From Tubulanus polymorphus (taxonomy: Eukaryota; Animalia; Nemertea): a DNA stretch of 64,000 nucleotides. Shown here one piece after another: positions 1 through 46,300 of the stretch. The stretch spans positions 13,390,050 to 13,454,049 of the forward strand of contig NC_134026.1 in the NCBI RefSeq assembly GCF_964204645.1. Reading direction: 5' to 3'. The translations under genes and the position numbers were made by a program. Each line of letters begins with the position of its first letter. Positions within the stretch are counted from its first letter, which is position 1. The notes under the pieces were generated by a model. The model had not been told where the DNA came from, searched no databases, and saw only the letters and a program-made list of their open reading frames with translations.

Positions 1-223
1 ATAGAAGAGGCGCGAACCAAGTGTATAGGGGTAAAATTTCCGATTCAATATGTTCTAAGGAGAGGTTAGCTAAAATCGGCGAGAGGGGGTCAACCATAGC
101 GAAACCATATATTTGCTCAAAGAAAATGCCATAACATTGAAAATAGTAAAATCTTTTATGTAATAATTCATCTCCAAAATGAATTTAAAAAAAGCAAAAA
201 AGCAATTTAAAAAAGCAAAAAAA

Positions 224-488
224 ATACTTTAAATTCTCGCGTTGTACTAACATTACAGTAACTTAAATTTGCTGATATTTTATCTCCATATTTAGTTTTT
301 ACCTTTTCTAATTTTAATATTTTATGATCAATTTCTTTTGTTACATCGACTAACTTTTTCAAATTGTCTTTTTGCTGGTGTTATTCTGTTATTTATTGTC
401 GCTAAGAATCTCCCATTTACTGCTTGTGATGATGAGTGGTGTGTCGCCCTCTCGTCCTCTCCTCTGAAGCCCTGATTTTCCAATTACT
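224..488 (-). mobile_element. Decayed Polinton terminus: short TIR plus pseudogene of the terminal 108-aa ORF
   Basis: The minus strand from 488 reads AGTAATTGGAAAATCAGGGCTTCAG...CACCACTCATCA, like the ends at 13505 and 27703. 224-416 is a frameshifted homolog of ORF 28042-28368 (KKLVDVTKEIDHKILKLEKVKTKYGDKISANLSYCNVSTTREFKVF). Confidence 0.85.
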
Positions 489-19300: not shown

Positions 19301-22300
19301 GAGATCACAGTTTAATTAAACAAAATTGTGATGAAATAAAACCAACTGATATAAAAATTGGAGATGAATTATTACATAAAAGATTTTACCCAAGAATGAA
19401 TCATATGTCATTTGATGAAATAATCGACAATATTTATAATATAGAACCAGAAACATTAGAAGAAAAAGATTATTTTATTAAAGGATTTCTTATGGGAGAT
19501 GGTTCAGCAGGTTTGTATAATTATGTTTGGAACAGTTTGTAAGATCAGTACCCGAATTATCGTACATTATCAAAGAAACACTGGATTTTGTTTTTACACA
19601 GCATTGTCATCTTCTGTCAGATTTACACAGAGAGTGGTTTGACCTATCTCATCTAGTTAGTTATGCTACTGCAATTTCAATTAAAGGAGCCCCTCTACAG
19701 AATTGCTGGGGTTTCATCGATGGGACTGTCCGTTCAATTTGTCGCCCAAAATATAATCAGAATATCGTTTACAATGGCAATAAAAGAACTCACGCGGTGA
19801 ATTTTCTAGCCACAACTATACCAAACGGTATAATAGCCAAAATGTGGGGGCCTATTGAAGGCAGATGGCATGACTCTGGTATGCTCAGGGAGAGTTGGAT
19901 TTTGCCTGTAATCCAGGCAAGAATGAATGATGGAAACCGTAGGCCTATGTGTTTGTATGGGGATGCGGCTTACCCATCGTCTGATTATCTAATAGGCCCT
20001 TATAAAGGAGCTGTGCTTAATGAACCGGAGACGCAATTCAAGACAGATGTCAATTGTAAGAGTTCCCGTCAAATGGACGTTTAGTCAAATTGTCTTTGGA
20101 TTTTTAGATTTTAAGAAGAACGTAAAGCTGTATTTGCAGCCTGAGGGCAAATTATATTTAGTGGGGACTTTTCTTAGTAACTGCCGAACCTGCATATATG
20201 GCAACGAAACATTATCTTACTTTGAAATGCAGCCGCCAACATTAGACCGATATGTTAATGGATAAAATTTTGTGTTATAAAACGCAAAAATTGTAATCAT
20301 ACAATGAAAAATGACATTTTATTCACTTTTGTTTTCAATTAAATATTCACATTTTTGAAATTATGTCTTTTCAATTATTTTTGAAAGCAGCTGCAACATC
20401 ATGTCGTCCTTTTTTGCCTGGGCTTCCTTTTCTTTTCTTTCCATCTCCATCGTTCTTGCTGCAGTTTAAGTTATGTTTTTCTCAGTTCAAACTCCCGGTC
20501 AATCTTTGTACGCAAATAATCTAGAGCTGCTGATGTTGAGGACACTTGTATATTCTGCTTCACCCGTTTTGAACTTTCACCTTCTTCAAAAAAAGAAAAG
20601 GGTCATATAAATGTTATTGTAGCCAATTATTAGAATGAAAGGAATCACTAATATAAGATACTACACTAAGTTACACATCACTTTCTGATCCAATCATGCA
20701 TGTTTCACGGATAATATTTTTACAGTACTACAGTTTTTGCGCAGAATATTTTATTTCAATATATGCAATTTGGTTGATGTTTGCCTGTGAACGGAATGAA
20801 GCGGTACCGTGAATAATAGTACCAGGTTCAACATTCACCATTCATTGCTAATGTTACTTCTACAGATCTAATCCCGGTACCACAAGCGCGTCATTCGAAA
20901 TCTATCCAGGGTTCATAGATGCAGTGCAGGAGTAAGTCAAATTGGCACCGTATAGTTTGGTGCAGCTGAAAAGTAGCGATGTCTTTCAGAATTTCTCTGA
21001 CCTTTTTGGGCACAAAAATATTAACTTGCAGGAAATCTTCTTCCGAGTGATTTTCGAGTGATTTAAGCTATCATAAGTTAGAACGAATCTGGAAAGATTT
21101 GCCGAACGTACCTTCGGTACGTTAAACGAAATTTGATATTAGGCTAACTAGCTTTTCTGGTAATTTAAAACTGTCATTATGTTGATATATCATACAAATG
21201 ATAATTCAGGCGAGTTTGAATGTTTCTTAAAAGGTTGTTTTGTGATATTTCATTTTAGGTTTGTCGTGCTACGTGCCCGTGTTCACTTTCACGGAATGAG
21301 TAACTCCACTACCAATGTACCACCGGGGCCAGTTGCTCAAAAGTTGGTTACAGTTAACCAGTGGATAGTTGACATAGTGACGATTGAAATATCATTGTTG
21401 CTATGGTATTTATCCGCCGGTTGTCTTTAACCAATTTTTGAGCAACTGGCCCCAGAAATTGACACATCAGGGGGTGTTATGATTATTCAAAGAAATTTTG
21501 AATGTATAGGGTTTTCGAAGTCGGACCTCGCCTCAATAGGCCTAATTTCAACTTCCCGATTCCGACTCCTGTTCGATCCTAGCTTGAAATCGAGAAACAA
21601 CAGTCAATCGTCCTTTAGTTGTGGTTAGAGTATTAGACTAGAAAAATAAAACCGAATTATTTCATTATCTTTAGATGCATTTGTAGATGTTGATTTAATA
21701 TTCCGCGTAGGAGAGAATTAGTACTTTTCAGAAAACGGTTGCTTATTCAAAGTTGGACTTCTAAGTCGGGGAATATTTCTTGGTCGCAAACTACGTACAC
21801 GTGGACCGACAGTTTACGCATGGTCTACCGTTCTCTGCATTGGGCACGGACGAATAGCTCTGTACTCTTCTACATCTCCCCTATTTTTTTGCCATGAAGG
21901 TACTACAAAAATTGCACACCAGGCAGGAACTGATTTCAAATCTGATTGCAGTTTACAAATTAAGAATAATTCCAGCTGATTATGAGAAACAACGTATCAT
22001 TAAGCCCAACGCACACGGCACCGAAAAAACGTTTTTTCCTCGTGAAAAAACGTTTTCGATGTTTTTTTTGTTATGCCGTGTGCGGGGGAGGCAAAACAAA
22101 ACGCCGAACTTAAAATCGTTTTTCACTAGCAAAAAACGTTTCCTGAAAAACGTTTCTGTTTCTGCGAAACAAATGTTTTGCCGTGTGCGCTGGGCTTTAG
22201 CCGATACAAAAACTGATTTCGGTTGATGTCAAATGATAACTCACATGATAGTTTACAGTTTATTTTTATTATAAGTCGCACTGATTTTAGTTCTATGTGC

Positions 22301-25300
22301 ATTAGATATAGGTTTAAAACCCATTGATTCACGATACGAAATCCATTTATTAGGATAATTTTCCGTGAGGCTTTAGAAGGCACCATGGTGCTTTCTAAAA
22401 TGATTTCGTCTTGGTGTAGGGCCGGTAGGCCTACTGTAAATTAATAACATTAAATCAAAGAAATGGACAACAGTTCACTAACATATTTCTGATATCGTAC
22501 GATGATTTTAATAATTGAAAATTGGGCTAGGTGAGAGTCAAAATTGCGTTGTTACCATCAATTAAAGTATATAAATCGTTTAATTCGGCTCGGTTTACAT
22601 TCGGATTTTCACATATTTCGGACTAAAATTCAAGTCCCTTTACTAGGTTATTTCTGTTCAAATGAAAACACATTATTTGCATTTCGTCCAATTGACTGAA
22701 TTTCCCATCCCCTGCTGGTGATCCGAATTTAGCGAATTTTCTAATCTTTTGAGCAACTTTAATCGTTTTTATTTTGATTATTTTCCAGTTTTTGTTTTTT
22801 ATGTATTTTGCTATACATTTTTCTTATTGATAAAATAAATTTCAAACGTGAAAAAGTATTACTGTATTGTTTCGATCTTCACTTACAGGTTCAGTCGTGT
22901 GGGTAGATGGTCCAATTCTCTAAAATTCCGTGTATTCTATTCTCCACGGCCAGAACCAAAATCAAACTTTTGGGGTTTAATTAAACAACGGCAATAACGT
23001 TGCATGAGTGGAAATTACAGTTGGATGCTCTGATTGCACACCCGCTATGAACAGACCGCAAAGTAGGTATAAATTGCGTCCGAAGCATAATATGGAATTT
23101 GAACCTACTCACACTGTATGGCATTAGCTCGTCAAAAGATTCCGTTCACAAGCAAACATCAACCAAATTGCTCAATATATATGTTCCGTATATGTTCGGA
23201 GGTCTTCAGCCACGACAATAATTGTTGAGCTTCTGATTTTAATATAAGGCGGTCTTTTCACTTTACTGCAATATGAGTTACAATTTAACTAATAATAAGC
23301 TAATTGCTAGTGAACTTGCTGACACGATATTCCATGGCTCGATTGCGTATGTCCATCCCTCTTTCATCTATGCGCACTGCGTCTTGCTTCTTTTCGATCT
23401 TTGCAGTTTTTAACTCCAAATTTTCCTCAGTTTTAGGGTCTATTATTTCATATAATTCTGCGATTTCTCTGTGATATCCTCTTCAATTCCTGACCTAAAA
23501 ATATGAATGATTTAAAAAGAAATCCATTCTAAAAAATATCAAAAAGCATAGTTGTATCCTACTATGGCATGATTTTTAGGAATAACTTTCAATTTTCAAT
23601 TAGCAATTTAGAATACCAAACTTTTATTTCTTTAGAAACTCATAATGTCGGTAGTTATCATAGTTATATACTCACGCTTTAAAATTATCGCTATTTTCTT
23701 TTTTTCGTTTATCCGTCAGTAGGATTATACGCTCTCTAGCTCGCCCTGCGTCGATCAAAAAATCATCTTTACTTTGCCCACTTTCTGGGATCCGGATATG
23801 GATTGCTGGCTGCCTAATTTTAACAGCCTCCTGTCATCTTCCTCCGAGAATCTGACAGGAGTTTTTTTTACCCGTGGCCATTTTAGTAACGGTTGTCGTT
23901 ATATTAAAAAGGAACTAAATTTCATTTCGTAACGCGAACGTATAGAAATGGACCGTAGGGGCGACTGCTAGTAAAGGACTTTTTAACAAAAGACTGACCA
24001 ATCCTTCATATTGATACGCCTCGAGATGAGTTGCCGCATCCCGATGATTTCAACCCAAGTTTTAAATTCGCACACTTAAATATTCAAAACGTAACAACCA
24101 AAAGTCATCTATTAATTAATTATTCTGTTCGATCGATCTAGAAAGGCGTAATTTTGATTTTTCGATGGTTTTAGTAGCATAAAACCACATTCCCTGGAGC
24201 AAACGACATATCGGCCACCATACTATTTCAGACGTTTACGTTGGCGTTCACGTTGCCCGTGCTTAAACTCTGTATTGACATTTTTGCAACATGTTCGCGT
24301 TATGAATAGATACAACGCTATTGAAGTTTTCAGTTTCAAGCATTTTCTAGTCGGAACACTACTCTTAAGATGATGATTTATGACCAATACAATATATAGC
24401 CAAGTTAATAAGATTCCAAGGGTAATCCAAATGGCAGAGTAAATGGTAGAAATTTGGCAAATAGTTGTTAAGAATAAAACTGCATCCAGTTTTCGCGGAA
24501 TGTATTCCTATAGCTGCCCCATAGAAACTCAAATCAATACCCATGCAGGATGGAAATGCGAAAGATTTAAGAGACAGCAAAGCCAGGAATAGGAGTTATT
24601 TACTGTTAAGATTATCGACAATACATAAAAAGCTATAACTGTATATATAAAGTTAATATGAAATGAACCATGAAAATGGGTGGCATGAGATTAGATGTTA
24701 AACATATGAAGTAGGCTAAATTTCCCTACATTGACCATTATGTTAGTTTTAAAAAGCTGACATACACTAGAATTTATGCAATAGGGGGTAACATAATATA
24801 TAACTGGGTAACTAGGATTTGAGTTAAATCACTCACGTATTGGTGAAAGCCTTACCTCCAGATACTTTTATCAGCTGAAACGTATTAGCACTTGATCTAT
24901 TCGAGCACATATATTGGTGACATCTTTTGCTGTACCTTCCATACGGCTGAATACATGTCCCATCCGGTGTCTGGCAACCTGAAGTAGTTGCATAGTTAGT
25001 AGCCAGGTAAGTATTTGCTTAAAAGGCTTACACCTGGGACAAATTGCAACAGGTTTGTTTCTATTTCGGTACTGGTAATTGTTAGGTAATTGTTTTGAAA
25101 CGAGATTGTGGATATCAGCATTACTGAATTATGCAGTTACTCTAAGTGAGGTAAATAGAGAATATGTTGACAAATTTGTTCAGTAGCTAAAAGAACAATA
25201 TGATAGATAGGTAGAAGAGCAATATCTTCCATATAATTTATCCATGTACACAATGGCTTGCATAGATTTTCTAAACTTGATTTGACAAAAAGTTATCAGT

Positions 25301-28300
25301 AACAATTAGCTGACGAAAAGCTTGAACACTTGAAACTAAGTGAATGTAATTAACTTTTGCAGGTAGAAATGACCATGGGAACATACGCAATGTATGAAAA
25401 TATTCTAGACCTAAAGGCTAAAGGATAATCATGTTCAGGTTATTATGTTTACTACATGTATTCATTTACAGTGCATGTTGGTTATTATTTTCCGTACAAT
25501 TGTGTGGGAAGTAAGATAAACCAGTGACTGGCATAATCGGTTTTTTAAAACATGTACATGAGTAATGAATTTTCCAATTCCAACAAATAAGGTAAATATT
25601 TTTATGAGGGTGCTAGAAGGCTCAGCCTACCTCAAAATTACTGTTTTAATGAAAATTGTGATTTCCTGATGAAACTTATCTCTTGATACTGATCTTACTA
25701 GGCTTAGCCTCAAAATCTATTTCGATTTTGAAAATACGTACTTTATTACGCTTCAATTTGTGCCGCATCGGCGACGAACGAGAGAGCTATTATGACGACT
25801 AGCCAAGAACTCGTCCAAGGACGGGTTTTATCGCGATCGATTTGATAACTTTGCTTCTCGTGGAAAACACAGGTATTAATTCATCTTAAAATTGGCCCCT
25901 CTTAATTTTTTGATTGGTAGATTTGACTTGACTTGATTTCAAGGAAACTTCGGCTACCTTGCGCTTGATACAAAAGCACACAGCCCGCCCGAACCCGTAA
26001 TAAAGTTTCGCAGTTATCCGTATGAATGGTATAATTATAGGTATGAATGTTATGCGGTATGTGATCTAGTGCCTGTAGATGCCATATTGAATCTCGGGAT
26101 TGTTACCATATTCGCATTCATAATAAGCCCACAATCATCCTTTTATGAAACGAGCGGGATAATGATGACTTCCGTATGTCCCGGCGAAATAAAGCACAAA
26201 TTATCTTGAAGAACATCAGTTTAATGAGACAAACAATTCGTTAACTCGACGAAAGAGTACTATTCTTAAGACTCTATTCCCTAGCAAATCAATGCGGTTA
26301 ATACGATTGCTAATCGAGCCACACTGATATGCTGTACGTCTGATTTTAAATGTTCGGTTGACATTTATTTTACCTAAACTCTTCAAACGATCTATTTTCA
26401 ATTCCCGTACACCATAATGAGCTAAGGCAGTATATAAAAGATTCTCGCAGCTGATAAATTTCCGAGAGTAAATTCCACTTTTTAATTTAAACAACATCAG
26501 CATTGCGTTTGTTCGGAATCACCGAAATTATTTCGATCATACATGGACGGTGTTTTGCAAAAGTCAGCTATGCCACAAGATGAAAAGTTTTGATAACAGC
26601 TGCTGGGGTAAGTATCGAATCATTTTTGTGTATTCCATTTTGCAATATAAGCTTACCTACATCGTTCCACGTATTGTGGTGGATAATGATTTCAGATGAT
26701 TGTTAGTTTCAGGTTGAGTATCGTAAGTCCTATTTTGCAAAGAAAGCTGTGTGGGTTAGATGGTTTTATGTAAAATTATACTTGATGGGTGATGGAATTT
26801 GCCTTACATTTCGTATAACCCTCCACGCCTCATACCTTTGAAGGAGTAAGGAATAGTGCAATGCTATTTTTTGCAGTGAACAGCCCTTGAAATCTGAGTC
26901 TGAGTGCTGTTCATCGGGATCGTCATAGTTCATAGTTTACAACGACGTCGATGAAGCACGTAGCCAGAGAACACGTCTTGTGGCACCACCTGTAATTGCG
27001 GTGCCCCCTGTTATTTTCCGTCATTCGTTTATGTTCATTTACTATTGGTTCGCGATTTTGAATTTCATTTTCCAAAATGGTTATCTTACTTATGATATCT
27101 ATATACCGATTATCTATAAATCAGTGAAATAAGTTGATTTTGAAAAACGAAGAAAATGCCATGCCAAAGGCCAAATGCCATGCCATGCCAGGATTAGAAC
27201 TTGCACATAAAAAAACTTTGTCATATAAAATAAGTTCTTATTTTCATATAATAAAATCTCAAAATGATGATTTTAGGGTTAGCTGACTTCCATGTAACAC
27301 CATTCAGATATTCTCGCTTACCATTTGGTTGAATTATCCATCCAATATTTTGTACGTAAAAATCACTTTCGATTCTTTGGTTATGATCAAAACGACCTGT
27401 TGTAAAGTCGTTTTTGCTACTGAATTCGTCGGTTGTAATTTAGTTTAGGACTAGTACTTAGGATCTGTACCTCATCACTCTCATCACTAAGCTTATTCAA
27501 TCTGATTGTTATTAAGTTCCTGGTGCATTAGATGTAGAGTATGATTGCCTCGCAGTTGTTGAGTGTTCGTCTTTTTGTGGAGAAATCTCTGCTTGTTCAT
27601 TTCCATGTTTTGTAGAAGACCGGTATTGTCCGGCATTAATATCGTTTCGTGGTACTTTTTATAATTGCTTGTCGAGGTTTGCAACCCGGCCTGTATAGTA
27701 GCAGTAATTAGAAGATGGCGTTTTCAGATCAGAGGTCGAGAGGTCGAGACACCACTCATCAAAGCTAGGCTCTAGTGAGAACGGACGATTGCTCTGTGAC
27801 ACACATATACAGTGAGTGCGCGTAACAACAACTGCGCGTGGATAGATCGATACAGTGAGTCTCTACTGAGAACGGTTATTAACGCGTGTGCTATTACTGT
27901 AGTAGTACAGTGATTGCGTGTCAACTGTACCCGGATAAATAGATGCTGTGAGGCTTGGGTGAGAACGGTTAATAGCGTGTTTGTTATATACAGGGGAAGT
28001 AATCCCCACTCATCACCACAAGTAATTTGTTTTCCTTATAAATGGGAGATAGAAAAGCATTCTTAGCAACAATAAATAACAGAATAAAACCAGCAAAAAA
28101 ACAATTTGAAATAAAAAAGTTAGTTGATGTTACAAAAGAAATTGAACATAAAATATTGAAATTAGAAAAGATAAAAACTAAATATGGAGAGAAAGTATCA
28201 GCGAATTTAAGCTACTGTAATGTTAGTACATCACGAGAATTTAAAGTGTTTTTACCCGATAAATGGGTTTCATTGAGTACAGAGGAATTGAAAGATTTAG

Positions 28301-31300
28301 TAGGATTTAAAATAATATATCATGGAAAAAATGAAGACGGCCATCATGATTTAGAAATTGTTGATTAAATTTAAAAAAAATAAATTAATAAAAATAATGA
28401 ATATCTAGAATCCGAAATGACTTATCTGGACAATTTAATTGCTCCGCATAGATGGTGCCATAAACGGCACCCACACAGTGATAAACAAAAGTAGTGAGAT
28501 ATTCAATTAATTAAAAAAAATTATTTTTTTTTGCTTTTTTTCTAAAATATTAATCCATTTTTTTTTTATTATCAATTTTGGAATTTCAGAAGTATTTTCA
28601 TTTTTGATAGCAGTTGTTTCAGGATTATCAATATCATGAATTTTATTTGATTTCTTATACCAATTACACCCAATTAAAATGAATACAATTACAAATCCAA
28701 CTGTAAAATATAAATATTTCTCAAATATTCTATTATCAGAAGGAGTAGAAATAACAATATTTTCACCATTTTTATTAACATTTTTATTACTTATTTTTTC
28801 TTTTACAGCTTTTTTATATTCTTGTGATTTAATTCCTAATCGTCGAGACCATTCAATTTGTTTCTGAGTTCTCGGTTTTTTCTTCACAGTTAATTCCTTC
28901 ACTTCTTTCACCTCGCTCATTTATTATAGAAATATTTTTACTTTCAATATTTGAAAATGTTATAACCCCAGTTGATAATAATGTCATAAATCCTCCTAAT
29001 TGAAACGATAAATATCCAATCCATTTATTTAATTCAGTCATAACTAAATAATCATTTTTTAAATCGGAATATAATCTATTTTCATCTTCAATTGGTAGTA
29101 TATAATTACATAATTTACTATAACCTTTTACTACATTTTCTGATATCGCGTCATTAATTTTAGCTGTTCTCGCGGCTTCATAAATCTTAAATAATCTAAT
29201 AATTTCAACTGATTTCATTGTATCTAATTCATTATAAGTTAAATTTTTATCAACAAATTTTTTACATTTTCCAGATGCTATTAATATTTCTAATTGATGT
29301 TTGCAATAAAGATAATATTCATAATTATTATTTGTTGTAACATTATTTAAAGCACCATCATCTGGAGTTAATTTGTTTTCTGTTATTCCTAAATCATCTA
29401 AAGTTTTTTCAATTGGAACATCACCATTTTTAGATTTTATTTTCTTTTCACCTACCATTTATATAACAAAAAAATTAATTGTGTTATGTTGCAACTAGAA
29501 TTTAACTAGAATGTAACTAGAATTCAACTAGATTAACAAGCTACTTGCAATATTGTTGTTTTTGTTGATTTCTTGTTAAATCTAGTTGATTTTTGTTTCA
29601 ACTACTAACAACTAGAATTCAACTAGAATGTAAATAGAATTAAACTAGATTAACAAGCTAGTTAAAATATTGTTAAATCTATTTGATTTTTGTTACAAAT
29701 ACTAATAACTAGAATTCAACTAGATTAACAAACTAATTGAATTTGAATAAATTCATATTTAAATGGGTGTTGTAATCTAAATAATAATTTTGATCTTTTA
29801 ATATTTTTCAACTTATCCATATATTCATTATGTAAATCATGTGGAATAATATCATTTTCCTCAAGTGCATTTTTCATCGATTTTCTATCTTTATTGTAGA
29901 ATAAAACTAGAAATCTAATGTTTTCTCTAAAGTCTTTAACAATTGAATTATATTTTTGATTTAAAACCCAAGTTGTTATCCCAAAATGGCTCCCAGATAA
30001 AGCTAAATAGCATAACTCACTTTCTCTAACTTTTGAATCATGTAGATTAGCACAATCATCTATAATGAATAATGTATTTGATCCTTTATAAATATCAATT
30101 GCTATTTTAATACAATTATCTAAATTTTCTTTTACTGTTTTAGGATCTAATATAATAAATTTATTATTCCTAGTAATATTTCTATCATAAGTTTGATTAA
30201 ATTCACATGTTGGGCAAAATAATACTATATTATCAAAATAGTTTTCATAAACAGTTTCTAATAAATTTAATATAAAATAAGTTTTTCCACAATTTGTTAC
30301 ACCAGAAATTAACATATTATGAGGCTCAAATATGAATAATTCCTTATTCATTTATATATTTTTAATTTTAGTTGATAATATCCATTCATTGAATTTATCT
30401 GGCCATCCAACCCATTTTACTAAAGAATATTTTTTTCTTTTAATAGTTTTTGTTTTTAATACTTTTTCAATTTTATATTCTTGTTCTAGATTTTCAGTAG
30501 TTAAACTTAATTCTTCTTCGTAAAAGTAGCCATGAACTTCTTCACCATCTAAATCTTCTAATTTATAGACATATGGTTTTGTTGTTATTACCTTTTTTAT
30601 TTTATATATTTCCCTAGTAAAATTTCGATCGTATCCTTTATCAAATATCTTTTTATACTTAGAAATTCTAACATTTTGACCAACTTTAAATTTAGGTTCA
30701 CCAAAATCATCTACAAGAAATGCTCCATATGAATTATTCCAAACAATTTCAGCATTTTCAGGTTTTCTAGCATCAATAGGTTTCATTCCAATAGAAGAAT
30801 GATAAGAATTATTATATCCTTCTATCAATTTTGGTAAAACATCAATCCATTTAAAAGTATTATTTGCTGTAAAATATTTCCACATTCTTGTTCTTAATGT
30901 TCTATTAAATCGTTCAACAACTGCTGCTTTTTTATCTGATTTTGTTGAAAAATATTTAATATTATGATTGTCTAAGAGTTCATGAACAAGTGAATTATCA
31001 AACTCTTTTCCATCATCAAATTGTATTTTTTCTGGTTTTAGTTTATCATCCAAAAGAAATTTTCTTAAAACATTTGATGTTTGTACAGCATCTTTTCTAT
31101 AAAGTGGGAAGCTCCATACATAACGACTAAAAATATCAATTATATTCAATAACCACCAATAATCATCATTATCTTTCTTAACATATTTCATATCAATTAA
31201 ATCTCCTTGCCACTGTTGATCTACATAACTTACCATAGTTTTACGAGTTTTATATTTTCTAACAATTTTTTTATGTGTTGTATATGTTGGTTGTTCTAAC

Positions 31301-34300
31301 ATAAATTCATTTATATCTTTATATTTAACTAAATTTTGTGGGATTATCTTATCTAATTTATCTTGTTTTACTTTACGCCATATATTTTTAGTAGAAGAAT
31401 AAGCAACCGAACTCTCAGGGTTGTAATATAAATTTCTTAAATATTGTTCTTTAGTATTAGGAGTTTTTTTTACCACCCATTTATATATCCTTAATTTTAA
31501 CTTTATATTTCTAATATTGAATACTATCTTATTGTGAATTTACAATATTTAATTGCGCGTCAGATATAATATAAATATGCATTTTAAAATTTAAGCTTCC
31601 TTTATTCTTTGTCATGAATAATTGTATTCCATCTTTAGTGTTCTGTAGTTTTTTCCCAGAACCATGTAATGAATTATCCTCTGTTGTTCTAAAATCTAAC
31701 CATAATGCATATTTATTGCCGGTATAATAATCAATTTGATTAATATTACAATTTTCAAATGATTTTACTTTTTCATTCATAAAATGTTTTCTAATTTCTG
31801 GCCACTGATCTATCATTCTCATTCCTTGGCAAAATATTTTATTTGCTATTCCTTCGATAGTTATTTCTACTTTTGTTATTTCAGGATTATAATAATTGTC
31901 TACCTTTATTGCACCATTAGAATATGTTGCAATAGTAAAAAATATTAATATTCTTTTAATAGATCTTCTTGGGAAGTTAATATTCTCATTCATTATTTCA
32001 TCATTTGCATTAATAGTTACAGTTTTAAATTTATCAATATAATCATATAATAATGAAAATCCTTGATTGTATTGAGTTTGAATTATACTTGAAATATTTT
32101 CATCAGTTACTGTATCATATTCTAAACATATATTCGATAATTTATAACTCATATCTTTAACAACGCTAGATAATACAATTTCATTTACAGGAGCAAATGT
32201 TATCTCAAATATAATATCTTCTTGAATTGCGTATTTATATAAAGGTGCATTATTATTTATCAATTCAAAATCTAATGGAATTTTATATTTGTTTCCATAA
32301 ATCTTTTTAATCAAATTATCTGTGGCACGAGTTACTATTGCGTCATTAGCTCCTGATCTTAATTTATTATGGTTTTCCGATTGGATGCCTTGAAATATCA
32401 TATTATTTCTATTTTCTTTAGTTAACCATAAATCTTTATAATGCATAAATAAATTATAATCATCTAATGAGAAAACTGTTTCCGGACCAATCTTTATAGT
32501 TAATTTTTTAATCAAATATCTTCCAACATTATCAACAACATAATTGTTATCATGGCCAGTACTTTTATATCGGCTGATAAATAAATACTATTTGGAACAT
32601 AAAAAGTATTTTGTGTTAATCTAGGAATTCTAACATATAAAGTTTCATCGGGATTAATATTTGAAGGGTTATGAGTAATTATACGATGTGATCTTTCTGC
32701 TTTAATAGCATTAGATATTCTAGAAATCTTCGAAGGACTTATATAACTCCCACTCATTAATTAAACATAAAAATTAATTATTTATTTTTTATTATTTTTT
32801 TCTTGATATCTTTTTGATATCATATTTACTAACCCAAAAATAATAGCACTTACAACTGTGATTAAGAATAAAATAATATGTTCAGCAGCAAAGTTAAGAA
32901 TATTCCCAGCAGATTTCAATATAAAACCAACAATTGATGCAATAACTCCAGGTAAAGCTGCAGCAGATTTTTTAGATAGTTCCCATAAATATTTGCTAAT
33001 TTCTTTAAACCATCTTTAACTTTATCTTGTATAGAATTATTATCATTCGGGGGTTTATCCGGTTTATTGGGAGTAGGTGTAGATTTCAAAGCATTTGATA
33101 TTGCTAAACCAATTTTTGTAAATAACATAGTTACAGCTGTTAGAATTGAAAGAATTGTTATTCCTTCTAATCTAAATAATAACTTTATTCTATCTTTTAA
33201 TGATATTTCAGAATTTGGTTTAATCAACAAATCTTTAAAAATAACTTTTAATCTATTAATATTATAATCATATGATTTTAACAATAATTTAATTTCTTCT
33301 TTTTGTAATTCTATGTTATATTCTAAATCATCTTTTTCTTTTTCTAAACGTAATTCTCTTTGCCTATATTCTATTTCATCAATTACTTGATGATCTAAAT
33401 CAGACTTTAATTGTTCTATTTCTTTATTTTTATCAGTTAATTCTTTTTCTAAAGTTCTAATTTTAAAATCTCTTATACTTTTATCATGCGCAATTTTATT
33501 AGATGCAAGTCTTATACTCATAATTTCTCTAATTGCTTTATCAGAAAATATATCTAAATCTTCTAATTCTTGATCTGTTGCATCAATTAATCCATTCGGT
33601 AAAAGTTTTTCAATTGGAACTTTATTTGATTTAAGTTCACTATTTTTGGAAGTTATATTCTGTTCAGAAGTTGTTTCTGTTTCTGATTTCTTTTTGATTA
33701 TTTCAAATAATTCATTAATTCTTTGTTTAAATACATCTATATTATCATCTATTTCTTTTTGTGTAACATCAGTTATTTCATTACTATTACTTATTATTTT
33801 AATTCTATCTGGTTTTAATTTTTCTAAAGTTGATTCTGATAATATTTTATTTTTATTATTTTTATAAGTGATATCAATATAATAATCACCTTTCAAACGA
33901 TAATAACATTTACCATTATCTAAAATTTTTAATTGATCTGCTAAAAGTCCAACGTCTTCATCATTTATGTTAAGTTTAGATTTTTCAATTAAATCTTCTA
34001 ATTTAGGTATTTTGTTTAAATTATCTAAATCTTGTTTTACTAAATCTGGGTCTAAATTTTCAGGATTTAATTGTGATTCAGCATTTTTAATATAATCAGG
34101 CATATTCAAATTATTATTATATTCTGGCTCATTACCATCTTTAAAACTTGTTTCATCAAAATCAGGTGGTTGTTCATCAGTTATACCAGGTTCATCAAAA
34201 GGATCCATTCCAATATCTTCTCCACCTTCTACATCCATTTATATAGTAAAAAAATTAAAATTTAAAATATAATATTCCTCCTATAACAATTCCTATACAA

Positions 34301-37300
34301 GTTATAGCTAATTTAGTATTTTCATGGGATTTATTGTCATTATCAGTTTTAATTATATCATGTTGAATATTATCAGTTTTAATATTTTCTGTAGTATTGT
34401 AATCTTTTATTTTGGAATCATTATCCAATTTAATATTCTTAGTTTTAGTTTCTGTTGATTGAATATGTTTTTTATTTTTTTCACCTTCCATTAATTTTGG
34501 AGCAGTGATAATCTTTTTATTTATATCATTTAACCCAAATGAATTATTTATTGTCGCAGTTTTAATTAGATTATTATAACCAATTATGTTTCCCATCTTT
34601 AATACTAAATCATTAGAAATAATTAATAGATTAGGGCCTATACAATAATTTAATCTAATATGTGATTTATCTAAATAATTTTGATATCTTATAATGTTTT
34701 CTGGAATCGATCTATTTTTATCATTATGTATGGAATCTTCAAATAATACTTTGAATTGTTTCTGTGTATCAAATGATGTATTCAAATTTCCAATTATCGG
34801 TGATCTTGTTTCAACTTGCGCACCTAAAATACATATCAAATAAGTTCTAATAGATTGATTTATTCTTTGTATACCTGATTTTGTAAAACCTTCATTATTT
34901 TCTAAAATGAAATAAACCCAACCATTATTGTTTTCTTGTTTTAAATTATCATAAAATTTCGGTAATTTATTGAAATTTAATGTTTCTAAATCCTTTGTTT
35001 CTATTTTACCATAACCTAATTTATTATTATAGATATTATAAAAACTATTAGATGGTATGGGAAGTGCACAATATTCTGCAATCTTTTTAGGGCAAGGAAG
35101 TGATCTTATTGTTCCAATTTTTGTTCTAAAATCAGAATTATTTATATCTATATTAAATTCATTGCAAATTTTATAAGACTTTGATAAATTAATATTATTA
35201 TCTAATTCTTTAAAATATCTAGATCCTGGTAAAGCGCACTCTAATTCATTTAATATTATTCTGATTTGAAAGTATGTATGAAATATAAATAAACTTTGAA
35301 TTAATTTATATTTAGAATTATTCAAATGATCATTCCAACTAATTCCACAACCTGTTGTTGCACAATAAACAGCAAAATTTAATTGGTTCTGCCAATACTT
35401 CATATTAGATTTTCATAACCATTGTTTTTCATCTTTCAATTTTTTAAAATTAATTAAATATATATGAAATATATTTTCCATCTTTGCATTAAAATTATTA
35501 GTTTCAGTAACATAAATTTCTAAATTAGTTAATGAATCTAAAACTTCATTTCTATATGTAATATCTTTATTAAAATCTATTGCTGGAATATTATATTTAA
35601 TTGATTTATTATATTGGAAAGCTTTTGGAAAACTATCTACCATTTATATAATTAAAAAATTAATAATTTATTAATTCTTTTAATAATTTATCCTTTTCTT
35701 CAACTGTTATATGACCATTTAAACTTATGATATAATCTAGTGTGTTCTTTAATTTATTAATTTCTTTTATATTAGATTTTATTTTTTCTTTATTACTTTT
35801 TATATTCAATTTTGAACTTATTCCGGTTAAAACACTTGAACTTAATCCTAACACACCAATTGATATAGCTAAAGGTGTTAATGGACTGAATATTGCTAGA
35901 AATGTTATTACAGAACTAATTGTAACCGAACCACTAATAATAAGATAATATATAATTTTACTTTTTAAATATTTTTTCTTTTTTATCTTTAAGTCACTTT
36001 CAAATTCTAATATTTGTTTTTCTAAATATATTTTCAATTTAGTTTTATTTATATCATGAGGAATAATATCAATACTATCAACTTTATCTTCCATTTATTT
36101 AGAAAAAAAAATTACTAATTAGTAAACTTATAAGCAACAAATATAACAATAACAGTTCCACCTAAAATCCATATTATTTCATATTTCTGTTGTTCTTTAC
36201 TTGGGGTATAATAATCTGATAATTTAGGTTTGTATAGATGTAATTTTTCTTTATTGGTTACCGCGTTATATAAACTCATTGCATCATCAACTGATTGAAA
36301 ATCTCTATGTGAAATCTTCTGATCATATAATTCCTTGTTAATGTAATCCATATAGTTTTGTCTCTTTTCTCTATATTCTTCTGCAGCTTTATTATATTTC
36401 TCTAACGCTAAGTTATGTCTTCTTTGTTCTCCTAATGAACTATTTTTATCAATATGTTTAAATAAATATCCACCACCAGTAAATGCCAAAGCGTTAACAA
36501 TTGCCGATCCTATAATAGTTATAATTGCAGAAGCCATTTATTTAGCAAAAAAATTATGTATTTATATGGGAGGAATATATTTTTGTTTTTCCAAATAATC
36601 AATTGTTAAATTAGATAAAGTAACTGCTAACGTTAATTTTAAAATATCATTTATATCAAATCTATCAACATTAACACTTCCCATTTTGAATACTTTTTTT
36701 AATACCATTGAATAACCAACAGTTCCAACTGAAAGTAATGCTCCATTATATAATCCAGTTATTATCCACTTATTATCACTCATTTATTTATCAAAAAAAT
36801 CACTATCTTCAAAATATTTAGTTATCTTAGTGATGATTAATTCAACATTTATTTTATTACTAGTTTCATTTGTATATATTTCAATTATTATTTTTCTAAT
36901 ATCATCGATGATAAAATCTTCATCTAATTCATAAAATCTTAAAGATTCTCTAATTAAATTAGTAATCTTTTCTACATTTAAAGTTTCTTTATCTATTGTT
37001 GTTTCATACTTAAATGTTGTTTCATTAGAAAATGCAATATTTTTGATATGTGTAATTACATCATTCATGTTAAATTTCATTTCTTTCTCACGTTTAAAAT
37101 CAAACCCAAAACATATACTCGGTCCAACAGTTATATTCATTTATATATCAAAAAAATTACTCTTTACATCTTATAACTAATTCATATATCACAGGAAAAT
37201 TATTCAAATCAATTAAATAACCATTATGATTTCCTATTTCTAATTTAAAATTATTGAAATGTGGAATACAAGGTTTAAAATCACATTCAGCTAAATTATA

Positions 37301-40300
37301 ATTTATTTGCGTTCCAAATTGTTTAACGTTCTTCAATGATAAAATATTTAATATACTAGAATTACATGTTGTATCTTTAGTTGCTTCGAATGTTTTTGTA
37401 GGATCGATTAAATTGCAATAAATATAAAAGTGTGTAAAAGGTATTATATTTGAGTTACCGTGTATGTTTACACCAATAAAATTATTTGGAGTAATTCCTA
37501 ACAGTTTAGCAAAAGGTTTTTTTATCGTGTAAGTATGTCTTTTTGTCATCAATGTATCAGATTTAACAAGTTTAATAAGTTCATCATCAAACTTTATTTT
37601 AATTTTATTAGAGCTCTCACTTTTTATGAATTTAATATTAAATTTAGAATTACCATTACCTAATCTAATCCGAGCTTTTCTATTAATTTCTTGCTCTAAT
37701 GTTTCTAAATTATATAATCCTGGTGTAAGCATAAGTTGAATCCATTTTTGTTCAAGTTTATCAAAAATAAGAAGGCTTCTATGTTCATCAGTTTTATCTG
37801 ATATATTGTAAAATGAGTTACATAAACTTATATTTACTAATTTTAAATCAAAACGGCATTGTTATTTTGGACTCTAACGAATATTTCGATAAATTAGATA
37901 AAATTGTATTTGATAAAAGTAAATTTACTGAAATCAAAAATGTGAGAAAGAATCACCCTGTCATATCTAATGAAACCAAAATCTGCGGATTTCTGAGAAA
38001 ACATGTGAAACAGTATGTAAGTTCAGAAATATTTGATTCTATCTACCCAAGCGGTAGCCAACCTGGTAAATTATATGGTTTTTGCAAAGTGCATAAAGAT
38101 AACTTTCCATTTCGACCCGTTGTATCAATGATCGACACTGCTGAATATAACCTGGCCAAATATCTCGATAAAATCATTAAACCACATATACCGTCTAAAT
38201 TCATGTTAAATAGCACTTGGGAGTTCCTTAAAAAACTGAAACAATTCGTTTTTAAACCTTCTGATATTCTAATAAGTTTTGATGTAGAGTCACTTTTCAC
38301 TAATGTTCCATTGAAAGAAACCATTGATATAGTTTCCGATTATATATATGCTTCCGACTCTAAACCTACATATGATCAGGCTACATTCAAAGAATTACTT
38401 AAAATCGCAACTTCGGGTTTGTTTATGTACAATGATCGTATTTTCAAGCAAGTTGATGGGGTCACCATGGGCAGCCCCTTAGGCCCAACCTTAGCGAACT
38501 TTTGTCTTGCCCATTTTGAAAACTTGCTCCTCTCCAAAACTAATTACAAACCGACATTATACCTGAGATACGTGGACGATATTTACGGCATATTTCGTAA
38601 TGTATCCAGTTATAGACTATTTTTTGAAGAATTGAATCGCCTCCATTCTAACCTTAAATTCACTTTTGAACTAGGTCCTAATCTATTACCTTTTCTCGAT
38701 ACCGAAATACAAATTCCGTTAGAAACCGGTGGTGACTTTATATCTCGAGTGTACAGGAAAGCTTCCAACACAGGCCTACTGTTGAACTTCAACGCCATGT
38801 GTCCGTATAAATGGAAAATAGGACTCATCAATACCATGCTTTTTCGTGCCTACAATATTTGCAGTGATTGGACCATCTTTTCAGAAGAAATCAATTTCTT
38901 GAAAAATCTGTTTAAATCTAATGCGTTTCCTATTCATGTCATCGATCAATGTATTAATAGATTTTTGAAATCAGAACAGAACTCAGAACCTCAACCGAAA
39001 CCTGTTGAAGATGGAATTGATCTATTCATTTCATTACCGTATATTGGTAACCCGTCAATCCTATTTGCCCGAAAATTAAAATATCTATTTAAAAGGAATT
39101 TTGAAATCAACTTGAAATGTGCATTCACTACGACCAAAATTAAGAATTTTTTCTCTTTGAAATGTGCTACCCCTAAATCGCTGAAGGCTAAAGTCATATA
39201 TAAATTTAATTGTTTATGTGATATAAACACTTCCTATATTGGGAAAACTAAACGACATTTGGCCATCAGGATTAAGGAACACAGATCAAAGACTTCAGCG
39301 ATTGGACAACATCTCGCAATTTGTCACACTTGTGATCAGGAATTCAGTAACAACAAATTCAAAATTCTAGACAAAGGTTCATCTGATCTCGACTGTAAAA
39401 TTAGGGAGGCCCTGTTTATTAAAGCGTAACGACCCTCTTTAAATCAACAATTATTTCAAAACGGCTCATCCTTTATCCTAAATGTATTAAAATAATTAGT
39501 TTGTAATTAAATACTTGGTTTGTAATTAGCTTAGAATTTAGCACTTGTAATTTTGTAACTTATGTTGTATATAAACCTGTAGTTTAATCATTTGATTCAC
39601 TTGTATTTCACCTGATGAGGGGATATGATCCCGAAAACGTTCGTGTTAATAAACTGTATTTACTCATTAGAAAATGAGGTTTTTAATGTTATCGCTTCTA
39701 TGGTTATTCGGATATTTGAACTCTCTTCCTAAGATCTAATTCTGCTGAAGTTGAACCTGAAGTTATTTGGAAAAGACCTTTCTTATTCTATGATAAGGAT
39801 AATATAAAAGATCATTTCTGCGAGCCTTGTCGAATAAAATATAGCCCTGAAAATATAGAAGATTGGGAGAATCATCAATTTCGTAAAGTACATATAGATA
39901 AAATTTATAATAAATTTGAAACTGAACTTAATGAAAGAAAAAATAATTTATTAGAAAAAATAAAATATGAGAAAACGTTACCAGATAATGAAGAAACAGT
40001 TGAAAAGTTAGAAAAACAATATAATGAATTAACAAGAAAAACATACTATTGTAAATATTGTAAATTGATTATTACAACAAGTAATTCAAATCTACATAAT
40101 AGAACAATAAAACATAAAGAAAACGTAAGAAAATACCAAGAGCTTAATGAAGATCTATTACCAATAAATTATAAACAAAAATGCCCACAATGTATTTATG
40201 CGTCCTTAAGACAAGAAGGTACTGTGTTATTTTGTAATGAATGTGGATGGCAAAAGAATTTATTGGGTGAAGAAAAAACTAGAGATTTTCTCATAGATCC

Positions 40301-43300
40301 AAAATTAAATTATCTTGATGAAATTTTTAAAATATTTTCTATAGAAGATCATACACCAGAATATATGCAATGGCTTGAAAAAATGAAAATAATAGAAAAT
40401 GAAAATGGTGAAATAACTAAAAGAGATATTATAAAAACAATTATTCCGTCAACATTTAACACAAAAGAAAAGAAAATGTATTTATATTTATTATTTAACG
40501 ATTATTATGAAAAACCTAAATTAACAGAAGAAGATATGGAAAATATAAAAAAAATATTCAAACAAATATTAATGTATCATTTGGAAAAAAGAATAACAGA
40601 TTCAATAAATTATGAATTCTTTTTAAATAAGATTGTAAATTATTTAAACCTAGATATTATAATTCCATTTGACGAATTAACAAACAAAAAGAAACAAAGA
40701 GAGCGAGATGAAATGTGGAACAAGATAGAACTTTATTTAAATGAGAAAAATGGAATGGAAGAAGAACCTGAACAATTAAATGAAACTGAAGAAGCCAATA
40801 GTGATTTCGAGTATGATGATATTGATTTTATGTTTTAATGACCATAAGGTAATGTTTTTATACCATCATCTAAAATATGTCTTTTATCATCAAATGGATT
40901 TAAACTAGTTTTTTCAACTTCATTAATGTACATCTCATGATCTTCTGATCTTAAACAATTCATTTTGTGTTTCATTACAATTGATTTATATAAACACTTT
41001 ATATAATCTTGAAATTCTATATGTTTATCAACCACATGTTTTGTTATTCCTTTTAACTTTTTAGCTTCATGATCTTTTGTTCTGTAACTATACATTTTAC
41101 TTCTTATCCCAACAAATTCAATCATTTCATCACCCCCTAATTCATCTTTAAATTTACCAGGAATCTTTTTATTATCATTGCTAAATAGTTCATGATCTTT
41201 GGGATAATTGCTAAAATCAAAATGATGTTTTAATGTTTTTAAGTCTTTTGTTATGTCATTTGTCTTGATTTTTAGTATGTAGGCGTCCGTATTTTTTTGG
41301 ATTAATGGGAACCCAGAATTGAATGTTCCATCATCTGTTGATAAATCATAAACATAGTCAGTTGCGTTATATATTTCAAATAAATCTTTAACTTCTTCAG
41401 TTAAATCTTTTTCTGTGTGGCTTAAATTAAAGCAATTCTGTTTAGATTTAATCAATCCAATATTCATATTGAAGCCTAATGAATTACATAATATATTTAA
41501 CCCTGATATAGCAACTTTTCCTTTCTGTGCAAAGGTTATCTTTTTATCCTTTGTAAATTTTTTAGCACCATCTGCTGCGTAGAATCCAATGAAGAACCAT
41601 TTTCTTAAATTATTTTTTGCATTTAATACATAATCTGGTACTATCTTTTCTTTAGTTGAAGTATTACTTTTCACTATTGCATGAATATAGAATTCATCAT
41701 TATATTTTATAGCAAAATCTTTAGGATTATTTACAAGTATTCTTTAAACTGCTGATGATTTCATATGATCCATGATTTTAAATGTTTTATTTGGATAAAC
41801 TTCTTCACAGAATTTCTTTATTCTTTCTAATAATTTTGAGTCTTGATTGCATAAATACCAGCAATATTGAGTGCGATTAACATATTTATACACACCTGCT
41901 GAACCATCACCCATGAAAAATCCTTTGATAAAATATTCTTTTTCTTCTAATGTTTCGGGTTCTATATTATAAATATTATCAATAATTTCATCAAATGACA
42001 TATGATTCATTCTTGGGTAAAATCTTTTATGTAATAATTCATCTCCAATTTTTATATCAGTTGGTTTTATTTCATCGCCATTTCGTTTAATTAAACTATG
42101 ATCTTCTGTAACATCTACAAATCCTAATTTAGTTCTAACTCTATAGATTTTCTTATTTGTTTTATGTCTGATAATATTCTTTAATTTTTTCCATCCATTT
42201 CTTGTCCAAACATCCATTAAACCATTTATTTGTATTAATTCTTTTTCTCCATATGAAATATAACATTCATTTTGTTTTGGAATTATTTCTGAAATTCTTC
42301 TTATCAATATTTTATCATTACATTTTAATAATATTGGGGTGTCAGCTGTTACAGAATCAAAATATAATATTTCAATATGCTTTTCCCCAAAAAGTGGTTG
42401 TAAAACATTATAATAAAAATCATACATTAATAATTTTGATACTTCTAAAACAGTCGAACCAATAAATATAGGTTTATTAAATTTCATTGATGTTCTTTTT
42501 AATTTAACTGCTGTTAAATAATCTTCAAATCTTTTATTTCCTAAATGTCTAGGACTTGATTGTAAATGTCTTAATCTTTCAGAATTATTCACTAATTCAA
42601 TATCATTTCTATTTCTAATATTTTCACATGTTTTACCATAAATCTATTATTCATTAATTTGAAGAAATCTTTTTCAAAATCTGTTTTTGATATTGTTCTC
42701 TGTTGAGTATTAAAATCTATATATTTTTCTAACCACTTCGATTGATTAAATTCAATATATCTATGTACTTTCTTTAATTTCATTCCTTGTTTTAGATAAA
42801 ATTTTAACATTCTATAATGAACAATATAATTGTATTTATTATTTTGAGTAAGTATTAATTTTTCTGTAAAAACATGATCTTTCGGTTTTATTTTCTTCTG
42901 GTATTCACTTAAATAACTATCATCTACAGTTAAATGTTCTGGGCAATAAGGTAAGTTTCTTGTTTTAAACTTTATATTTTCAGGATATTCTAAATCAACT
43001 ACAAAGAAATAACCAATTGGTGCTTCATCTTCTAAACTCATAATTGCGCTTTCCCAATTAGTTTTATCATCACTTTCAACTTCTGTTTATATAAAATTTT
43101 TATATGGTTGAGGTTGCATCAATGCCCAACCATATAAATTATTGGCGTCAATATATAATAATTTATATTCATCATTTGCTTTAAAATACCTTTAAAAGAT
43201 TTTATATCTCCCATAACACCACTAATTCCACCTCTAATTGATTTTTCAAATAATAAAACCATGTCTGGTTCTTTTAATAAATCTAATTCTACATTTGTAT

Positions 43301-46300
43301 ATTTTAAACCACATTGCCAGGTTAAACCAGGACTTGAATAACAATAACAAGGATCAACATTAAAATGATTCAAATTAACTTCTCTAAATTTTTCAAATAT
43401 GTCAGCCAATATCATAACGTCTGATTTTAAATATAAATCAACTAATTCACCATGATTTTTCATCTTAAAATGGTTCCAAATATTTAATGTTCTATTACAC
43501 ACTTCGTCTTTCACATACTCCTCTTTTAATTGATCATAAAATTGACCTTTTAATAATTCTGTTACATTAAAATCATTGTGTGTTTTATAAAATGAATGAG
43601 GAATTGCGCCTTTATATCTCAATAATTTAAAATCTTGTTCATTTGGATAATAATATCGAGTTATAACAAAATCATTATCAACTAAACTTTTTGATAAATT
43701 ATCTAATGAACTTGCTAGAAATCTATAAGAATCTAAAAATCTAATGCAACCAAATTGAAATGAAATATAATTTTCAGATGTTTTAGCTAATAGTTTAAAA
43801 CCATATTTTCTTACATTTGCTTCATTCATAGCATTATATTCTTCTATTTCTTGATTAATTGCACCCAATTTTCCCGATAATTGTTTTATAAATAGATGGG
43901 TATCATATCCTGATAAATTATGAAATAATATTGGTACGAAATTTACTTTTTTAGCTTGTAAATTGCAATCTTCATGAGCAGCTCCACGATATTTTGAATT
44001 CAAATGATCATGATCTCTAACTTTTTTATCAAATGAATAAAAACGTTTTTCACAATAACAACAATGAGTTGTATAATTAAAATCAATTTCATCTTCTTTT
44101 GTCATAACTATTCTCTTATTTTTGTTTAATAATTTTGCAAAATCACTTTCTAATTCAATCATTTTAACACAAAAATCATTAACTACATTTTCACCTCTAA
44201 AAGAAATATATTGACTTTCATATAATTCGGGATAATTTGATTTGATGTAAATTCCATAAGCAGCAGCTCTTTGATGAACTTTTTTAATTGTATTTATAAT
44301 TGGTGGGTCTTGTATTGTGTCTTCATTTAATTCATTTCCTTTATCCATTGATTTTAATAATTGCTTTTTGTTATATATTTCTTTTCTATCTTGATCAGTT
44401 AATTCTTTATTCAACGATTCAAAATCCCCATAAATTACAAATGGAACAATATTTTTAAATTTATGATTAGTAAATTTCAATTTCAATCTTTTTCTGTTGG
44501 CATTATTAATTTACAAAAATCTTTATTATCACATAATTCTTTATGTTTTAGTAACGCATTCTCAGTTCTAAATTTAGATAAATATTTTCTACATAGATAA
44601 ATTTTATGGCTGTTAAAATCACTTTCTGTTCTAAAGAATAAATCAATTTGTTTTAACCACATATAATGTTCATTTTCATCTTTTTTGTAATATAACAAAT
44701 CTATAGCATTTTCATCATCATAATATTCTGTTAAATATAAAGCTTCCAATGTATAATCTTTAATATTTTCACCTTTTGTCTTTGGTAATTGCATTAATTT
44801 TTATTACATTTATTTTTAAATTATTAATTTTTTCTATTTTGGGTATCATTTTTATAGTTACTGGATATTGATCAATTTTATATAATGTTTCATATTTCCG
44901 ATAATCTGTTATTCTACAAACATTTTCCTGTGTTGGATGTAAGCAACTAATAATTGACCATAGAAAACATTTATTATCTTCATTTTGAATATTTATTACT
45001 GCTTTTGTCGTAAATGGTAATTTAATATAAGATGATGCTTTAATATCCTTTTCTGTTGTAAAGTTTGAATCATTTTTAAACATTGTTTTACTTTTTGATG
45101 TTTTATTTCTTTTTGTATTGTAAACATTTAAATCTAAATATATAATTTCATTCAATGTTAAGCCAGAACCCTCAAAATATCTTTCTTCAATATGACGTTT
45201 AAATTCATTTAATATTTTTTCTAACTTCTCTTTTATTTGTGTTTTTGAAATAATTTCTTCAGAGAGTGTTTGAATATTATAATTCATTTTTTCTTCTGAC
45301 TTTATAAAACTTACTTTCCCAGAGATACTAATTTTTGGATATTCAACATCTGTTATCAAATCTAGTATTTTTTCTATTATATCATTAAATTTACTATAAT
45401 CTTCTATTGTTGTACCTTTAAAGAATCTAAATATAATAGCCGCAGGACCAATTTTACTATGTAATGTTTCTAAAATTTCAATTGTATCTTTTATTTCTAG
45501 TGAATCAATATAATTTCTAACATTTTCCATGTAAGGTTTATTTGAAATGGATTTAGTTTTTGAAGTTGGTTTTTTTACTTTTTGAGGTTTATCATCGAAA
45601 TAATCTTTTCCTAAAACATTATTACTCAAATTTTGATGGTGTTTTTGTGATTCGAGATGTCTATCATAATTCCTTTTTACTATAAATTCATTACAAACTT
45701 CACATTTTGTTTCATCCACATTCATATTTTCTAATCGTTCTTTTCTTTCATTGGAATTTTCTGGAGTTTCAAAATCTATTACGTTTTTATATGATTTGAA
45801 GACTTTTCATGACGCGATTTTTGAAATTTATCAATGTATTTTTTACAATATGGACAATGATATTGATTTTCATTAACATCAATTTGTTCTGTCTTATTCT
45901 CTTCCATTTATAAGGAAAAAAAATTACTTGTGGTGATGAGTGGGGATTACTTCCCCCTGTATATAACAAACACGCTATTAACCGTTCTCACCCAAGCCTC
46001 ACAGCATCTATTTATCCGGGTACAGTTGACACGCAATCACTGTACTACTACAGTAATAGCACACGCGTTAATAACCGTTCTCAGTAGAGACTCACTGTAT
46101 CGATCTATCCACGCGCAGTTGTTGTTACGCGCACTCACTGTATATGTGTGTCACAGAGCAATCGTCCGTTCTCACTAGAGCCTAGCTGTGATGAGTGGTG
46201 TCTCGACCTCTCGACCTCTGATCTGAAAACGCCATCTTCTAATTACTAGTAGCGCCTGTGCGAGTATTGGCCATTGTGGTTTCTTCAGTTGATGGAAATC

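Follow-up and report, generated by a model that had tools for sequence, protein, structure and literature searches.

A Pol-c LAGLIDADG intein in the protein-primed DNA polymerase of a Polinton in the genome of Tubulanus polymorphus

The locus

The stretch of DNA analysed here, referred to as the window, comprises 64 kb (64,000 nucleotides) of a Tubulanus polymorphus contig and is rich in transposons. Polintons are characterised by long terminal inverted repeats, AG...CT ends and a 6-bp target duplication, and all of these delimit one element of the window, a Polinton/Maverick which also carries a protein-primed family-B DNA polymerase (pPolB) and a retroviral-type integrase (Table 1). The original prediction, made from the sequence alone, had placed an intein in a Polinton pPolB, and in fact the integrase, the packaging ATPase, the pPolB and the terminal repeats all lie in this one element. 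The presence of an adenovirus-type cysteine protease is variable among Polintons; no Pfam protease match was obtained among the 21 window proteins scanned. The pPolB of the window copy is spread over six ORF pieces (five breaks), which means that this copy is dead. The reverse-transcriptase element nested in the Polinton is presumably Penelope-like, to judge by its motifs. Upstream of several minus-strand Polinton genes (29452, 34232, 35637, 37134, 45901) a 28-nt motif was observed beside the ATG, resembling a TATA box (repeat family D9). In addition, the terminal inverted repeats contain internal 66-nt repeats (27829-27987 and 45963-46121), and reads indicate that many sister copies are without about 250 nt of this internal-repeat stretch.

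The Polinton is flanked by five minus-strand phase-1 exons (two on its right, three on its left) that resemble one another, are rich in Cys and carry AG/GT signals; the same scan returned a few less convincing minus-strand candidates and none on the plus strand. Since like exons occur on both sides and on the same strand, the Polinton most likely sits in an intron of a host gene, which is where the original prediction had put it. This candidate gene (2214-48083, minus strand) would be built of repeated phase-1 exons, each encoding a three-Cys module of about 40 aa, and its introns would reach about 23 kb. No significant family match was found for these exons in Pfam, or in the ESM Atlas for the one exon searched there, and a VWC match was weak (E 0.067). 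The window also holds a second relic of the same Polinton family, with a more distant pPolB fragment (75-78%) and an intein cut off by a DDE_Tnp_4 transposase.

Table 1. Features of the 64-kb window (positions relative to its first nucleotide)
Feature	Positions	Strand	Basis or remarks
Pol-c intein, 355 codons (1065 nt)	41291..42355	-	Split Hint splicing domain around two-motif LAGLIDADG endonuclease; bounds from empty-allele reads
In-frame TAA, intein codon 204, private to window copy	41744..41746	-	Translation; 183/185 run X6 reads differ at 41744
pPolB N-extein piece, in frame with intein, ends YFD	42356..42643	-	71-76% identity to intein-less pPolBs P0356/P0358/P0359
pPolB C-extein, from TDA to the stop of the gene	40835..41290	-	75-81% identity to P0356/P0358/P0359
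Remaining pPolB, four ORF pieces, endonuclease-VII-like domain	42592..45806	-	DNA_pol_B_2 E 6e-9; Endonuclease_7 E 0.005
Whole Polinton/Maverick, 18,545 nt, ends AG...CT, about 23% GC	27703..46247		Terminal repeats and target duplication
Left terminal inverted repeat, 347 nt	27703..28049		98.9% to right repeat
Right terminal inverted repeat	45900..46247		98.9% to left repeat
Target-site duplication AGTAGC (6 bp, perfect), left	27697..27702	+	Repeat comparison
Target-site duplication AGTAGC, right	46248..46253	+	Repeat comparison
A32-type packaging ATPase	29725..30351	-	Pox_A32 E 1e-11
Retroviral-type integrase with chromodomain	30352..31539	-	rve E 2e-10; Chromo E 0.001
Probable major capsid protein	31529..32587	-	Weak Capsid_N match, E 0.012
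Reverse-transcriptase element nested in Polinton	37771..39429	+	RVT_1 E 4e-10; GC higher
Zinc-finger ORF of the Polinton (U1-type and Cys-rich fingers), convergent with pPolB	39720-40838	+	Profile search
Two phase-1 Cys-rich host exons upstream of Polinton	48083-47970, 47793-47671	-	Putative, by splice signals and similarity of the repeats
Phase-1 Cys-rich host exon downstream of Polinton	24856..24978	-	Splice signals; similar at 4273-4157 and 2330-2214
Second Polinton relic, decayed, same family	about 13.5-19.5 kb (13500-19530)	+	1382-nt tandem duplication, truncated intein
5' part of same intein in second Polinton relic	19055..19527	+	92% nt identity in intein part, 94% in extein
Third remnant, related Polinton end	220-488		Repeat comparison

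Anatomy of the intein

Along the minus-strand frame 42643-40835, the polymerase reads from pPolB motif B to ...KHIEILYFD, continues into 355 codons that start with S-V-T and end with K-N, and resumes with TDAYILK... and the polymerase C-terminus, so that the insert separates YFD from TDA within a single pPolB frame. Motif scanning and translation reproduce the architecture originally described for this insert, which splits motif C: the splicing residues are S1, T83-x-x-H86 of block B, D337 of block F, N355 and the +1 Thr, and two LAGLIDADG motifs with the acidic residues D150 and D262 enclose the stop of the window copy. The insert is confirmed as a Pol-c-allele LAGLIDADG intein in motif C of a Polinton pPolB.

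The penultimate residue is Lys instead of His, and block F is likewise devoid of its His. A penultimate His is common in class-1 inteins and is not universal. Among 227 related inteins, 84 end in K-N and 111 in H-N, so that the lack of the penultimate His is normal variation of this allele.

The profile search that had been proposed as a check placed the insert above the cut-offs of NCBIfam TIGR01445 intein_Nterm (30.9 bits against 24.5) and Pfam LAGLIDADG_3 (27 bits against 22.5), and below that of Pfam Intein_splicing (E 1.6e-6, 28.4 bits against 35.8). A Hint fold, the absence of which was to speak against an intein, is predicted by an AlphaFold2 model based on an 86-row alignment (pLDDT 95.3, pTM 0.93), the best PDB matches of which are solved homing-endonuclease inteins, i.e. 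TliVMA, PI-PkoII, PhoVMA, PI-PfuI and PI-SceI (E 1e-16 to 6e-11), and the best named matches of which in the viral collection BFVD are giant-virus PolBs. A single-sequence fold (pLDDT 36) was discarded. In the ESM Atlas, the intein of another pPolB, P0095, retrieved generic LAGLIDADG/intein clusters.

Full and empty alleles within the species

Raw genomic reads with the same species label, produced in another study (run X6), were compared with the window at 85% likeness, with about 12% of the run covered; run X5, a marine metagenome with a small share, was left out of the evidence. Seventy-eight of them are without a net 1065 nt, i.e. 355 codons: in 46 reads 1074 nt are skipped with 9 between, in 29 reads 1070 with 5, and in 3 reads 1077 with 12. 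Reads without exactly the length of the intein imply that full and empty alleles coexist in the species, intein-less alleles being what the original prediction had suggested looking for, and the exact removal of the insert restores the conserved motif YFDTDA from YFD and TDA. Moreover, read depth is 136-263 inside the intein versus about 310-570 in nearby extein bins, which means that roughly a third to half of the related copies carry the intein. The stop codon, from which nearly all reads differ (Table 1), is thus private to the window copy.

At 90% likeness the depth is 114-241 in the intein, whereas the host exon region averages close to 10, which would correspond to roughly 12-25 intein copies if that region is single-copy. 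Runs X7 and X8 contributed no matching reads. At this likeness the empty-site joint is absent among the 15 joints listed, beyond which there are 40 others.

Related inteins in other protein-primed polymerases

Uninterrupted full-length pPolBs with a related intein are P0094 (63% identical in the intein), P0095, P0097, P0102, P0104 and P0063, besides which protein searches returned many fragments of intein-bearing pPolBs. These carriers are putatively assigned to Polintons by the type of their polymerase. Both catalytic Asp residues of the LAGLIDADG motifs are kept in all 11 Polinton inteins. The nearest exteins to that of the window (71-81%) are empty, only 2 intein carriers occur among the best 120 extein matches, and the nearest extein relatives with a eukaryote name belong to molluscs and a spider. 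Such relatives, the long introns and repeated Cys-rich exons of the candidate host gene and the wealth of transposons agree with an animal host, a non-animal one such as a protist being improbable. The DNA context of the other intein-bearing pPolBs gave no match in IMG/VR or GTDB, no protein-primed carrier was present among the parsed junctions of 80 metagenome loci, and a phage collection gave two weak matches (25-27%).

Full and empty alleles are also found side by side in these proteins, with exteins 94-99% identical in the P0095 and P0099 clusters. Among the 15 listed of the 136 members of the P0095 cluster, 7 are full, 6 are without exactly 346 aa and 2 are too short, the exteins of the empty alleles being 94-98% identical to those of the full ones. 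Full and empty P0095 alleles show 12 near-fixed differences over 1191 extein positions, 10 of which fall at -7 to +44 of the site, and none of 100,000 permutations was as extreme. Homing with co-conversion would be expected to leave such clustering, which could also result from one ordinary recombination event. A full and an empty allele compared in the P0099 cluster do not differ around the site. The empty P0095 alleles differ strongly at the catalytic motif (YFDTDAM, YTDCDSM, YGDTDAM), which could represent escape from the endonuclease. A motif flagged in P0377 in the cluster comparison was rejected as a false call.

In the extein tree (102 rows), the 9 carriers need 7 changes. Among carriers of the endonuclease-VII type, intein and extein identity run in parallel (58/58 vs 63, 67/70 vs 66, 78/85 vs 77), which points to an old acquisition followed by long co-descent. 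P0097, a pPolB of the VSR type, is 14-26% identical to the other carriers in the extein and 42-50% in the intein; a close intein in a distant extein suggests transfer from one Polinton type to another, distant one.

Intein trees and the question of the donor

The same site, YxD/TD followed by S, G or A (the slash marks the insertion point), is occupied in at least 118 RNA-primed PolB homologues. For tree building, 233 inteins were extracted by motif from 350 proteins, and 6 were dropped as same-family duplicates or doubtful parses. The remaining 227 rows were analysed with FastTree, which groups the 11 pPolB inteins in a single clade (99) situated deep within the inteins of RNA-primed PolBs. 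In the IQ-TREE analysis (LG+G4) of 56 rows chosen from the FastTree neighbourhood, the 10 pPolB inteins included again form one clade (100/100), the sister of which (89/93) is a 19-row clade sharing the end FNxG[FYT]PLI. Three of these 19 rows are 99.7-100% identical to GVMAG polymerases. Furthermore, a DNA pattern for the C-terminal junction of the sister clade was matched by 10 of 10 GVMAG contigs in IMG/VR, with 0 matches in GTDB genomes.

A giant virus is therefore the donor favoured by these comparisons, and the acquisition would most likely have been from Nucleocytoviricota. An unlikely alternative, which concerns the origin only and overlaps with the mechanism proposed below, is that the donor was a cellular, delta-like polymerase or that of a T4-like phage. 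In fact, FastTree places the Pol-delta-like P0108 and P0329 beside the Polinton clade, this grouping is not rejected by an AU test (p = 0.34), and an intein in Pol delta of Chloropicon appears in the available text of PMC10710043. Nevertheless, IQ-TREE prefers the clade that includes the GVMAG-identical polymerases, and the FNxG[FYT]PLI signature of that clade is absent from P0108, a polymerase closest to Pol delta and bearing a C4 zinc finger. As regards phages, P0105, the one member tested of a four-row subgroup of the sister clade with the same intein allele (P0105, P0106, P0112, P0227), is T4/RB69 gp43-like; phage-type rows are, however, nested within the sister clade, and the BFVD matches mentioned above again point to giant viruses. 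The Pol-c allele seems to have entered phage polymerases as well.

The favoured giant-virus origin agrees in part with the original prediction of a transfer from a giant virus into a pPolB. Of the separate intein and extein trees suggested there, the intein trees show the Polinton inteins nested among those of RNA-primed PolBs, and the kinship to giant-virus PolB inteins holds in the trees and in BFVD, whereas a direct donor does not follow from a sister relation of 89/93, an RB69-like member in the sister clade and an AU test at the value given. The notion of a one-off jump into the window element has to be abandoned: an old intein lineage extends across several Polinton-type polymerases, and the transfer to Polinton pPolBs is ancient and not an event of the window copy.

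Two further groups of related inteins were observed. P0098, P0174, P0183, P0198, P0208, P0212, P0239 and P0328 are type II topoisomerases, whose eight inteins form one clade at a D[QA]D/xDG site resembling motif C; this is a non-allelic jump between similar motifs. A Pol-c intein is also present in P0108, P0302 and P0336, Pol-delta-like polymerases from metagenome contigs, all uninterrupted and with a C4 zinc finger at the C-terminus.

Proposed mechanism

We consider it quite probable that the motif-C Pol-c intein, broken in the window copy, is predicted correctly to self-splice in intact copies, and that it persists by homing into empty ones. Splicing and cleavage are here proposed by analogy. 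By the established chemistry of class-1 inteins, Ser1 would undergo an N-O acyl shift helped by T83 and H86, after which transfer to the +1 Thr and cyclisation of Asn355 would rejoin YFD and TD, restoring motif C, so that a working polymerase would come only from copies whose intein splices. Once excised, the intein would cut the empty motif-C site of a second Polinton copy. With a full copy as template, repair would then move the intein together with flanking codons into the cut copy; a multi-copy element would offer many targets within one nucleus. Over longer times, an RNA-primed PolB would have supplied the intein once, long ago; endonuclease-VII-type pPolBs would then have carried it through a long shared descent with repeated gain and loss, and a distant pPolB of the VSR type would have received it in at least one jump. 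Since related inteins occur beside empty copies in other Polinton-type polymerases, spread by cutting and copying in is likely, and the sequence comparisons provide good evidence that mobility may be ongoing.

It is, on the other hand, improbable that the intein is real and has lost homing, having been gained once and inherited vertically, with empty copies that never had it or lost it by precise recombination. Much of the pattern does fit vertical descent with loss, since intein identity tracks extein identity in the endonuclease-VII-type carriers, and the change counts on the extein tree are blind to gain versus loss. Against this stand the conserved catalytic Asp residues, the near identity of full and empty exteins, the clustering of P0095 differences at the site and the discordance of P0097, all of which are in favour of homing. 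An assembly artefact or contamination is refuted, its probability being negligible, by the second intein copy within the window, an intein depth of over 100 in same-species reads from another study, a GC content matching that of the extein (0.256 vs 0.258) and uninterrupted homologues in other assemblies.

Beyond homing within one element family, we lean slightly towards the wider reading that animals carry a giant-virus-derived LAGLIDADG intein in Polinton pPolBs, acting as a germ-line homing drive among endogenous virus copies that has jumped between two deeply split pPolB types. If so, the intein testifies to former encounters of giant viruses with Polintons within a single cell, and could be used to trace the exchange of DNA between RNA-primed and protein-primed lineages of polymerases as well as between distant Polintons. 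Moreover, as a multi-copy element presents full and empty alleles in one genome, the homing cycle becomes readable from its copies (invasion, co-conversion, resistant targets and decay) and directly testable. There is also a practical consequence, in that annotation pipelines would misjudge intein-bearing polymerases as having no motif C.

Comparison with known systems

The intein allele itself is already known, and what appears to be new is the class of host protein and the genomic setting. In the accessible part of the open full-text literature (supplements, subscription journals and Repbase reports being outside this scope), no description of an intein in a Polinton polymerase was found. 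The setting matters since animal genomes have been said to contain no inteins, as stated for metazoan genomes in the available text of PMC5784728.

Insertion of nucleases into Polinton pPolBs is itself known, and HNH and VSR domains have been described there (Jeong 2023, 10.1101/2023.08.22.554363; Krupovic 2024, PMC11071308); the available text of the latter suggests that these inserts stem from intein invasions. Unlike those fused domains, for which no Hint is described in the available texts, a complete Hint and LAGLIDADG intein interrupts motif C here. The word "intein" has 0 occurrences in the main text of Jeong 2023.

Nuclear inteins of Anaeramoeba and Chloropicon, and those of algal endogenous viral PolBs, resemble the present case in that family-B polymerases on nuclear chromosomes are concerned and viruses are proposed as vectors; according to the available text of PMC10710043, Pol delta/zeta of Chloropicon contains inteins, as do viral-like polymerases located on nuclear scaffolds of algae. 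The carriers in that text are, however, protists and algae with cellular or viral-like polymerases, in contrast to the Polinton case, and its main text nowhere uses the words "animal", "metazoa" or "transposon".

Among solved structures, TliVMA (7qsu), PI-PkoII (2cw7), PI-PfuI (1dq3) and PI-SceI (1vde) share with the intein model a Hint domain and a two-domain LAGLIDADG endonuclease (TM-score 0.41-0.66), although their identity is 12-18% and they reside in other host proteins. The PolB inteins of GVMAGs (P0113, P0116, P0129) are closer, with about 40% identity, the end FNxGFPLI.[KH]N and the position of sister clade in IQ-TREE. They differ in their exteins, which are RNA-primed PolBs (PF00136 and PF03104), and the sister relation is that of 89/93.

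The Pol-c site was originally said to be shared with archaeal and giant-virus PolBs, and the available text of Ogata 2005 (PMC549080) indeed gives YGD/TDS as the pol-c site for both mimivirus and archaea, the mimivirus PolB intein having 351 aa and the form Ser...Asn/Thr. The present intein is like these Pol-c inteins in its YxD/TDx site, Ser1, terminal Asn, +1 Thr, TxxH block, LAGLIDADG motifs and length of about 350 aa. Unlike them, it is housed in a Polinton pPolB on a eukaryotic chromosome, in an element present in many copies, with full and empty alleles in one genome.
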